NCBI GenBank assembly: GCA_963922315.1
Contig: CAWUID010000002.1
Location: 9,546 to 73,545, forward strand
Direction: 5' to 3'
DNA length: 64,000 nucleotides
Source of the DNA: an uncultured Gammaproteobacteria bacterium
GTDB lineage: Bacteria > Pseudomonadota > Gammaproteobacteria > Chromatiales > Chromatiaceae
Part shown: positions 10,202-36,112 of the stretch, one piece after another
How the letters are laid out: every line of letters starts with the position of its first letter
Numbering within the stretch: the first letter of the stretch is position 1
Made by a program: the position numbers and the translations under genes
The notes under the pieces: generated by a model
Database searches by the model: none
Told to the model about the DNA's origin: nothing
The model's input: only the letters and a program-made list of their open reading frames with translations

Positions 10202-10212
10202 TGTGAGTAATC

Positions 10213-10256
10213 TGTGGATAATATTGAAAAGCCATATTGTCCACAATTTATCCACA
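10213..10256. promoter_or_regulatory. Cluster of three DnaA boxes directly downstream of dnaA
   Basis: TGTGGATAA (10213-10221, perfect, inverted), TTGTCCACA (10237-10245, 1 mismatch) and TTATCCACA (10248-10256, perfect). A very AT-rich stretch follows. Confidence 0.7.
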
Positions 10257-10443
10257 GTTTTCTATAGAATTCATACTCAGATTATTAACACACCTTTTTC
10301 AAGATAAGTTACTGATTTCTTTGAGAAAAAAGCAAAAAACCTCTATTACTCACAGGCTTAATAGTAATATATTAGTTAAATTAAATACGTTATTAGAGGT
10401 GCCTGTCTAAATCGGATACTCCAAAAACGGTACATTTGACTGA

Positions 10444-10561
10444 AATCAAATTTTAAATCGTGGGCGAGGTATGAAACCTTGCCCACGACCAAAGGGGCGA
10501 GAGCTACGCCTCTCCCCCTTTGGAAACCCCCATGGTTTTGTCCCCGCCGCAAGCGGCGGGG
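10444..10561 (+). repeat. Three-hairpin structured repeat, copy A
   Basis: AATCAAATTTTAAATCG, then HP1 (CGTGGGCGAGG/CCTTGCCCACG), HP2 (CCAAAGGGGcGAGAG/CTCTCCCCCTTTGG) and HP3 (CCCCGCCGC/GCGGCGGGG). Nearly identical to copy B. This is a GC-rich element in AT-rich surroundings. Confidence 0.8.
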
Positions 10562-10775
10562 AATTCTCAGATTAAAAGCTAAGTACCTAATCTGACGACA
10601 GTATTCAAGAGTTTAAACAACGTAGTACTGCAGACGATGCGCGCCATACGCCATTTTAATAACTTCCACAAAATCCTTGTACCGTCGTTGGGCTCATTCA
10701 CCCACGGCTGAAGCCGTAGTATTCTATCTGCGGTCATAAAGATTGATACCCGTAACATAATGTAACTACATCAAA

Positions 10776-11860: not shown

Positions 11861-12432
11861 TTGTTGAAAAAAAATACTTTACGTATCACTGGTGGCAGTT
11901 ATCTTAGTAGACGCTTGTGCTTCATCCCAGAAAATGAGTTACGTCCAACAACTGATCGTATTCGTGAAACCGTATTCAGTTGGTTACAGTCTGAAATTCG
12001 TGAATACAAAATTTTAGATTTGTTTGCAGGTAGTGGTGTACTTGGGTTTGAAGCTTTATCTCGCAATGCATCTCAAGTCGTTTTTGTTGAGCGAAATAAA
12101 AACTCAATAACTCAGTTAAAGAATAATCTGAAAAACCTGAAAATTTCTGAAAAACAGGCTCAGGTGTTCCATACAGATAGTTTTGATTATCTAAAAAGAA
12201 GTCAAGATAGTTTTGATCTTATTTTTCTTGATCCACCTTTTTCTGGTAATTTGATTTGTGATTTTTTCAATCAAATCAATAATTTTAGTTGTCTGAACCA
12301 TTTAAAATGGATCTATCTGGAACAAACAGTTAAAAAAAATTGGCCAGTTTTACCTGAGCCCTGGTATTGGTATCGTCAGAAAGTTGCAGGTCAGGTGAAA
12401 TTTTCTTTGTTATGCAAACGTACAGATGTTTA

Positions 12433-12433
<1 letters not shown>
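11861..12433 (+). CDS. rsmD: 16S rRNA (guanine966-N2)-methyltransferase RsmD
   Basis: LRPTTDRIRETVFSWL, DLFAGSGVLGFEALSR and IFLDPPF motifs. Classical rsmD-coaD neighbourhood. TTG start. Confidence 0.88.
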
Positions 12434-13315
<882 letters not shown>

Positions 13316-35913: not shown

Positions 35914-35992
35914 TCAGCCTCTTTTGTGAAGCCGCAGCGAACTGTCGTTGCGCCATGAAATATATAGATTTATCAAGTATTTAAACTGAGAG

Positions 35993-36112
35993 CCCCCGCA
36001 ACTTGTTGCGGGGGACAAAACAATGAGGGTTTCCAAAAGGGGGAAAAGCGTAGCTCTCACCCCTTTGGTCGTGTGCAAGGTTTCATGCCTCGCACACGAT
36101 TTAAATTTGATT
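35993..36112 (-). repeat. Three-hairpin structured repeat, copy C (inverted, diverged)
   Basis: The reverse complement aligns with copies A and B along the whole length. The HP1 stem is CGTGTGCGAGG/CCTTGCACACG and the HP3 stem is CCCCCGCAAC/GTTGCGGGGG. Both differ from A/B but still pair. Confidence 0.75.

Follow-up and report, generated by a model that had tools for sequence, protein, structure and literature searches.

A Mobile, Structured Bacterial DNA Repeat Bearing the Insertion Signature of the IS200/IS605 Family

Three copies of a hairpin-rich repeat of 127–128 nucleotides (nt) lie in a 64,000-nt stretch of DNA, hereafter the window, from an uncultured gammaproteobacterium of the Chromatiaceae (contig CAWUID010000002.1, positions 9,546 to 73,545 of the forward strand), and we consider them, with a probability of roughly 0.85, to be copies of a mobile, non-coding, structured DNA repeat. 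The comparison of related genomes shows mobility of the family, precise one-sided insertion, targets specific to each subfamily, and decay after insertion, and we put the chances at about even that this movement follows an IS200/IS605-like mechanism, with the repeat as a non-autonomous, gene-less element. The host assembly comprises 1.83 Mb in 57 contigs with 51% G+C, and the closest named relatives of its GGT protein are found in the Sedimenticolaceae and in sulfur-oxidising symbionts.

Results

The Repeat and Its Subfamilies

An earlier reading of the window, made from its letters alone (the sequence-only reading), had noticed the three copies and the compensatory substitutions in their stems, and had offered for them a structured mobile element, an mRNA-stabilising 3' module, or a protein-binding RNA. 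Sequence and alignment bear out the three copies at the places it named, alignable end to end, and an nhmmer search of the whole 1.83-Mb genome puts their status as a repeat far above chance, with 42 full-length copies and about 12 truncated or internally deleted ones. All the copies are intergenic on the open reading frame (ORF) calls, save one inside a called ORF that is taken as a spurious call. The unit had been given as 118 nt and proved to be longer, with about ten more conserved bases, either AATWCTCAGA or TATTTCAAGA, on the 3' side of the third hairpin. The layout of three hairpins (HP1, HP2, and HP3) held when the copies were folded, with the addition of a fourth small hairpin, AAACC/GGTTT, that had been missed between HP2 and HP3. 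On the written strand, read from leader to tail as in Table 1, each copy folds far better than its shuffled sequence (z between -5.9 and -9.1), and the opposite strands of the three copies fold about equally well. HP3 lies 10 nt from one end of the element and HP1 lies 15 nt from the other, as judged from folds that are both supported by covariation.

Two subfamilies are present in this genome. Type 1 has the HP1 arms GTGGGCGAGG/CCTCGCCCAC, the HP3 arms GCAGC..GCTGC, and the first of the two tails given above, and type 2 has GCAGGCGAGG/CCTCGCCTGC, GCCGC..GCGGC, and the second tail; given that both arms of HP1 and both arms of HP3 change between them, the types differ by paired substitutions. 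Copy A is a hybrid, with HP1 and tail of type 1 and HP3 of type 2. As had been noticed, copies A and B differ at six positions in HP1 and are identical from GACCAAAGG through HP3, and copy C preserves the pairing of HP1 and HP3 through paired substitutions, in the alignment as well as in the fold.

Filled and Empty Insertion Sites

The ends of the element were fixed by four orthologous comparisons of filled and empty sites among the host genome (G000) and its sister species of the same genus (G001 to G003), in which the copy counts are 31, 5, and none, the species with none being G001. At G000 C19:20672-20804, the filled host site reads CTGCAA/AATCAAA...CTCAGA/TTAAAATAG and the empty site of G003 reads CTGCAA/TTAAAATAA, with the slashes marking the junctions. 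The rpoA/rplQ spacer and a site beside a tRNA are both filled in the host and empty in G001 and G002, and the site at C2 ~17245 of the host is filled in G002 and empty in the host itself. The site of copy B in the window is also empty in G001 and G002. No target-site duplication was found at any of the four comparisons and no terminal inverted repeats exist either, with the ends AATCAAA... and ...CTCAGA sharing at most 4 nt (TCAA/TTGA), and this in one lineage only. Therefore, the filled and empty sites define an insert of 127–128 nt that makes no duplication, and the conserved five bases on its 3' side are host DNA. Of the options offered by the sequence-only reading, the structured mobile element is the one upheld, by these orthologous sites and by the tens to more than 100 copies present in many lineages. 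A target duplication, inverted-repeat ends, and a helitron-like A/T insertion with a TC start were all looked for at the empty sites and not found, and the C-variants count against a helix closing the 5' leader on the 3' flank.

The five host bases beside the tail read TTAAA (16 copies), TTTAA (12), or TTCAA (3) in type 1, ATAAA (7) or ATCAA (5) in type 2, and ATCAA or ATTAA in the Binatia lineage. At least 85% of the copies have the word WTNAA at this flank vs. a background of 1.1% per position, and the opposite (5') flank shows no conserved bases in the family alignment. The reverse complements of these flank words are TTTAA, TTTAT, and TTGAT, and the same three words are the published targets of IS605, group A IStrons, and ISDra2 (PMC13565253, PMC4227781). 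In 58 of 67 copies, and in 13 of 14 lineages, the tail base at the foot of HP3 is the complement of the first base of the flank, and covariation links the fourth base of the tail to the third of the target word (Fisher p = 0.0016); in a guide/target pairing test, no single simple register accounted for all the positions. The 5' end of the element, AATCAA, also resembles the target ATCAA, and therefore, on the opposite strand, TTGAT/ marks the target as well as the end of the element.

Copies in the Window and Their Surroundings

Table 1. Copies of the repeat in the window, with the parts of copy A and the target words beside each copy.
Feature	Position	Strand	Context and basis
Copy A, full element, 128 nt	10444..10571	+	between dnaA and hemE; sequence and family alignment; boundaries after empty-site comparisons
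5' leader AATCAAATTTTAAA	10444..10457	+	conserved in 42 copies and across phyla
HP1, 12-13 bp stem, loop (T)ATGAA(A)	10458..10488	+	fold; pairing kept, sequence lineage-variable
HP2, nearly invariant core CCAAAGGGG-(C)GAGAG-loop-CTCTC-CCCCTTTGG	10489..10523	+	fold; core in 117+ loci, several phyla
Linker AAACCCCCATGGTTTTGT	10524..10541	+	small hairpin AAACC/GGTTT in this genome (fold)
HP3, 8-bp GC stem, loop CAAG	10542..10561	+	fold; subfamily swap GCAGC/GCTGC vs. GCCGC/GCGGC
3' tail AATTCTCAGA, final 10 nt of element	10562..10571	+	base 1 adjoins HP3 foot
Target word TTAAA of copy A, pre-existing host DNA outside the element	10572..10576	+	word kept at empty sites
Copy B, 127 nt, type 2	12433..12559	+	between rsmD and coaD; site empty in G001, G002
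Target word ATAAA of copy B	12560..12564	+	AATAAA at empty sites of G001, G002
Copy C, 127 nt, divergent type 1	35986..36112	-	downstream of gyrB
Target word TTTAA of copy C, minus-strand reading	35981..35985	-	boundary by analogy with family alignment, +/- one base

The first base of copy B is, as the sequence-only reading had it, the final A of the rsmD TAA stop. The insertion swapped out the last rsmD codons (window positions 12420-12433 and 12560-12570), and the present TAA combines two bases of the flank with the first of the element, while the frames of the sister species continue through AATAAAGACTGA. Copy A abuts an AT-rich stretch (10202-10443) downstream of dnaA and, if this stretch is an origin, the element landed at its edge. 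In the rpoA/rplQ spacer of G003 (locus L182, C192), where the host has a full copy, there is a fragment of about 40 nt, CTCAGGATT-CCCTGCCACAAGCAGCGGGG-ACAAAA, whose match to the HP3 end in the opposite orientation suggests an independent insertion into the same spacer.

Internal-deletion derivatives are found elsewhere in the same genome, at C39:14417-14502, C3:17434-17516, and C37:8873-8938; one of them fuses HP1 to HP2 at a common GGGCGAG and others are without HP2 or without most of HP1 and HP2, and, from their sequences, loss seems to remove hairpins module by module. At C9:60-170, a 35-bp host sequence (TTGTAGTTTCCTCTCTCATCCCGACAAGCTATAAT) is directly repeated on either side of a lone HP1 hairpin (AAATCGCAGGCGAGGTATGAAACCTCGCCTG), an arrangement unlike that of the normal insertions.

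Spread across Bacteria and Covariation of the Stems

The core GACCAAAGGGG...CCCCTTTGGAAA occurs in multiple copies in assemblies labelled Candidatus Binatia and "Deltaproteobacteria", and also in the Chromatiales, including the USC-gamma methane oxidisers, in the Salinisphaeraceae, in the Legionellales, and in others, and the order of parts is constant throughout: an AATCAA leader, a variable HP1, the invariant HP2 with AAACCCCAT, a variable HP3, a short tail, and the WTNAA flank. The leader consensus of the whole family is AATCAAnTT..ATCG, which gives an opposite-strand element end of ...TTTGATT. Four Binatia-type genomes carry from 48 to more than 100 copies each at 96-100% identity, and a covariance model built from 16 lineages detects members in 50 of 400 Gammaproteobacteria sampled evenly, or 46 of 321 genera. 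No match was found among PLSDB plasmids, and no core pattern among viral contigs.

Among the 16 lineages, 13 of 35 pairs are changed on both sides, a value that none of 500 shuffles reaches, and 94.6% of the cells are paired, compared with 84% in shuffles and about 50% in slid controls. Most of the change falls on the outer hairpins, with 6 of 12 pairs in HP1 changed on both sides and 4 of 7 pairs in HP3 covarying, and most HP2 pairs are invariant. The compensatory stem changes first noticed in the window are strong in HP1 and HP3 at the level of the family. In most of the other lineages, three HP2-loop bases pair with three bases after CCCCAT (CCG/CGG, GCA/TGC, GCG/CGC, CGCG/CGCG, and CGA/TCG), and two of the three pairs of this loop-linker helix (helix 5) covary, so that a candidate pseudoknot may form in most lineages other than the host; tables of loop-linker complementarity give it no support in the copies of the host genome itself.

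A related observation concerns Shewanella gaetbuli and S. holmiensis, in which the core GACCAAAGGGG...CCCCTTTGGAAACCC stands at what is apparently a single conserved locus (L278:5830-5865 and L282:3220-3255), with a loop/downstream complementarity of CGCT/AGCG and, in L282, a TwoAYGGAY RNA about 120 nt away.

Gene Orientation, Strand, and RNA Searches

The sequence-only reading had taken the G.T pairs of the stems as a hint of selection on an RNA of the written strand. This observation was selective, given that HP1 of copy B has A.C on the written strand. The opposite strand of copy B also folds better (-70.5 vs. -64.1 kcal/mol), and the HP1 and HP3 mismatches of 152 copies from many genomes amount to 116 G.T vs. 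110 A.C. By the folding energy of the whole element, 111 of 155 copies favour the opposite strand, an excess that we set aside because wobble pairs do not explain it. With respect to the flanking genes, the copies are co-directional in 14 sense and 15 antisense cases, convergent in 10, and divergent in 8, which matches the background of intergenic regions in general, where 62% lie between co-directional, 18% between convergent, and 20% between divergent genes, and one orthologous copy common to two species is conserved no better than its flanks. Random gene orientation, symmetric wobble counts, and an orthologous copy that decays like its surroundings all speak against an RNA selected on the written strand, and the proposed mRNA 3' module is not supported either, given that a consensus scan of copies A and B found no terminator, nor any promoter. 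The earlier opinion that the repeat belongs to no known Rfam family was correct: with Rfam 15 nothing reached the gathering level, the best sub-threshold hit being BjrC80 with 26.4 bits vs. a gathering score of 80, and a Binatia copy was also without a match. A known RNA family was discarded after searches in both gathering and E-value modes gave nothing usable.

Discussion

A Possible IS200/IS605-like Mechanism

The elements of the IS200/IS605 family have no inverted repeats, make no duplication, bear hairpins at their ends, show 5'-side specificity, and move as single-stranded DNA by means of a Y1 HUH transposase (PMC3597680, PMC13565253, PMC4227781), and gene-less derivatives of them are known as palindrome-associated transposable elements, or PATEs (PMC10055086). 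The repeat described here shares with both the absence of terminal inverted repeats and of duplication, a one-sided T-rich word taken from the published ones, hairpins just inside both ends, and an element end that is like the target word, and it is for the lack of inverted repeats and duplication, the hairpins inside both ends, and the one-sided T-rich word that we favour an IS200/IS605-like mechanism. Moreover, target choice appears to follow the internal sequence at the hairpin foot, a parallel to the guide that pairs with the cleavage site in IS608 (PMC3597680). The sequence-only reading had also raised a match to a known IS or MITE end; by sequence there is none, the repeat having no similarity to any described IS end, whereas the insertion signature is that of the IS200/IS605 family.

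Under this mechanism, the element would travel as a folded single strand, in a "peel-and-paste" manner, with the HUH Y1 enzyme, either TnpA or a relative of the RAYT kind, supplied in trans. The opposite strand would then be laid out as 5'-TTWAA, the left junction, a 10-nt linker, HP3, the HP2 core, HP1, and a 15-nt linker ending in TTGATT at the right junction (5'-TTWAA / ... TTGATT / -3'). The flanking word would be the left cleavage and target site, read by pairing with bases at the hairpin foot, and the TTGATT end of the element would be the right cleavage site. The hairpins, together with the loop-linker pseudoknot in most lineages, would be kept because only well-folded master copies transpose, and not for the sake of a host RNA. 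The family does behave selfishly, with no gene-orientation bias, symmetric mismatches, decay, deletion derivatives, and high numbers of near-identical copies.

Several observations weigh against the IS200/IS605-like mechanism. As to architecture, the most conserved part of the element is its middle and not its ends, and the end hairpins are dissimilar, with 12-13 bp in HP1 (GTGGGCGAGG...) vs. 8 bp in HP3 (CCCCGCAG...) and no common sequence or size. In IS608, near-identical hairpins stand at both ends and are bound by the same protein. As to the strand, the position of the target predicts the opposite strand as the active one, whereas in the lineage consensus sequences wobbles favour the written strand by roughly two to one (about 27 G.U vs. 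about 13 A.C), an excess carried by three columns in lineages that are related. The active strand is predicted to lie on the lagging-strand template, and the weak bias of 32 of 50 copies in this direction, as read from local GC skew in a draft of 57 contigs, is not significant (32:18, binomial estimate p ~0.065).

The search for the enzyme adds to these objections. No canonical IS200-type TnpA was found in the host genome, G002, G003, or G017, and the only Y1 genes of the host are two single-copy RAYT-like genes, with 72 and 57 bits against REP_Tyr_transpos (NCBIfam cut-off 80). The two genes also occur in G001, a genome free of the element; no copy adjoins either of them in the host, and RAYT-B is flanked by another palindromic repeat. 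RAYT-A has close homologues in 19 of 50 element-positive vs. 74 of 350 element-negative genomes, a weak enrichment (odds ratio ~2.3). Y1 genes went undetected in 19 of 33 re-checked element-bearing genomes, including the Binatia genome G032, with more than 100 copies, and G035, and some 600 kb around 85 copies held no Y1 or RAYT gene. We suggest keeping in mind that many of these genomes are draft metagenome assemblies, from which multi-copy transposase genes are often missing, and therefore the missing transposase is weak evidence. The lack of a detected cognate TnpA, of any Y1 gene in many hosts, and of TnpB, together with the unlike end hairpins and the best conservation lying in a central hairpin with a possible pseudoknot, is what separates the repeat from the known IS200/IS605 elements.

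Other Explanations for the Repeat

The same facts can be read, in our opinion with rather low probability, as the work of a nuclease or recombinase other than Y1, which would recognise the invariant HP2 of a mobile DNA element and use HP1 and HP3 as struts for the ends. Such an enzyme would agree with the lack of Y1 in many bearing genomes, one of them with more than 100 near-identical copies, with an HP2 and AAACCCCAT conserved across phyla while the end hairpins vary, with the dissimilarity of these two hairpins, and with the fact that neither the partial copies of the host nor the matches listed for four Binatia genomes included a longer, autonomous form sharing the ends. Against it, IS200/IS605 elements have exactly these target words and this one-sided insertion without duplication, the genomes searched are mostly draft metagenome assemblies of the kind discussed above, and no candidate protein was found. 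Neither Y1 transposases nor TnpB nor Rpn/YhgA (Transposase_31) track the element. G000 to G003, G017, and 13 of 15 further genomes rich in the element lack TnpB (PF07282), so that a TnpB guide (omega) RNA is rejected for the structured middle, and Rpn/YhgA was discarded as a partner since it is absent from most of the other hosts; the host genome itself has only one Transposase_31 match.

A bolder and still less probable reading makes the middle module, CCAAAGGGG-AGAG-loop-CTCT-CCCCTTTGG-AAACCCCAT plus the pseudoknot, the heart of a new kind of mobile element whose partner is neither Y1 nor TnpB nor Rpn. The module would act as a folded single strand of DNA or RNA, with the variable HP1 and HP3 positioning the ends. 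As a variant of it, HP1 and the following ACCA, which resemble the acceptor/T-arm minihelix of a tRNA, would recruit a universal host enzyme, and the family would therefore persist across phyla without any transposase candidate.

That the repeat is a host RNA of the written strand, be it a small RNA (sRNA), an mRNA-stabilising 3' module, or a protein-binding RNA kept for a host function, is improbable. The strong covariation and the candidate pseudoknot would be expected of such an RNA, the lineage wobbles favour the written strand by about 2:1, with a G.U recurring atop HP2 in 9 of 16 lineages, and to these may be added the likeness of HP1 and ACCA to the tRNA minihelix and the weak full-length resemblance to BjrC80. 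These points are met by the lack of a preferred orientation and of promoter and terminator consensus, by copy-level mismatches that are strand-symmetric, by an orthologous copy decaying like its flanks, by presence and absence that vary between sister species, by copies that disturb gene ends such as that of rsmD, and by a top Rfam score far under its threshold. BjrC80 (RF02354) and ar14 (RF02344), both alphaproteobacterial sRNAs, are also strings of hairpins and align weakly with the written strand over its full length (26.4 and 16.5 bits), whereas these scores are far under gathering (80 and 58.8), there are no common motifs, and the taxa are others.

Least probable of all, a domesticated REP/BIME-like DNA site for gyrase, IHF, or a nucleoid protein, with CCAAAGGGG...CCCCTTTGG as a double-stranded protein site, would suit the numerous, palindromic, intergenic copies, the invariant symmetric core, and the strand-symmetric mismatch counts, yet the loop-linker covariation requires a single-stranded fold, sister species G001 has no copy, the copies decay, and there is no regular spacing or BIME-like arrangement.

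Two other known groups of short repeats deserve comparison. REP/REPIN sequences are 20-40-nt hairpins with a conserved GTAG/CGTC tag, often arranged as an inverted doublet. Like those of the REP/REPIN-RAYT systems, our repeats are short, palindromic, and intergenic, with tens to hundreds per genome and compensated stems, in a host with two RAYT-like genes, whereas they have no such tag, are asymmetric with three or four hairpins instead of a doublet of one hairpin, do not flank RAYT genes, and are tracked weakly by RAYT-A. With the classical MITEs, such as the Correia elements of Neisseria and ERIC, they share a size of about 100-150 bp, the non-coding, intergenic, and multi-copy nature, the subfamilies, and the deletion derivatives, while MITEs have terminal inverted repeats and a target duplication, for instance TA, and our element has neither.

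Other Repeats and Genes Observed in the Search

On either side of the 241-aa (amino acid) RAYT-like gene of the host (C1:120358-121083, minus strand) stands a different palindrome, imperfect and about 110 nt long, CTTCTGAAAAC...GTTTTCAGAG, which lies at C1:120212-120357 and C1:121084-121333 and has a further copy beside a tRNA near C39:13500; gene and palindrome look like a separate REPIN-RAYT pair. The other RAYT-like protein of the host, of 281 aa, has a C-terminal DnaA-like helix-turn-helix, and a 286-aa protein of a Binatia-type genome (L334, G039 C144:45853-46713) is 50% identical to it over its full length. The Binatia genomes G031, G038, and G039 have three to seven Y1 matches each, of which most are open frames 320-345 aa long, and G032 has none.

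The host also carries sets of paralogues on many contigs (C14:13798-15483 and C3:10988-11917 being among the examples), with about 20 copies of a protein of about 560 aa, at least 10 of a protein of about 310 aa, and smaller similar sets; by their sequences, the former look like the AAA-ATPase/PD-(D/E)XK type and the latter like the Rpn/YhgA type. Fragments of IS3 and IS5 type were seen in the host genome by eye from translations, without a family-library scan. Finally, the DNA beside one copy at C10 ~1240-1440 of the host (CAGTTTCAAGGCGTGACTTCGCC...CACAATAGAGTGACTATCCC) matches at least 15 places in G003 and also occurs in G001 and G002, and on this sequence evidence we count it as a putative third interspersed repeat family, of about 140 nt.

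Conclusions

The family is apparently undescribed; it is in no catalogue that we found and is absent from Rfam, and our literature searches, which do not prove absence, found no earlier description of it. It is present in about one-eighth of the Gammaproteobacteria sampled and attains copy numbers of 100 or more in Candidatus Binatia, and its cataloguing would clear many false calls of "structured RNA" or "riboswitch-like leader" in the genomes of uncultured bacteria. It joins the insertion signature of IS200/IS605 to a foreign architecture, with unlike end hairpins, an almost invariant centre with a candidate pseudoknot, and hosts without a detectable Y1, which implies either a cryptic transposase acting in trans or an enzymology of single-strand transposition that is wider than known. 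The covarying tails and target words of its subfamilies amount to a natural experiment on element-directed target choice. In the host itself, a reduced genome of the symbiont type, the element reshapes gene ends, as in the rsmD stop, and adjoins dnaA and an origin-like region.

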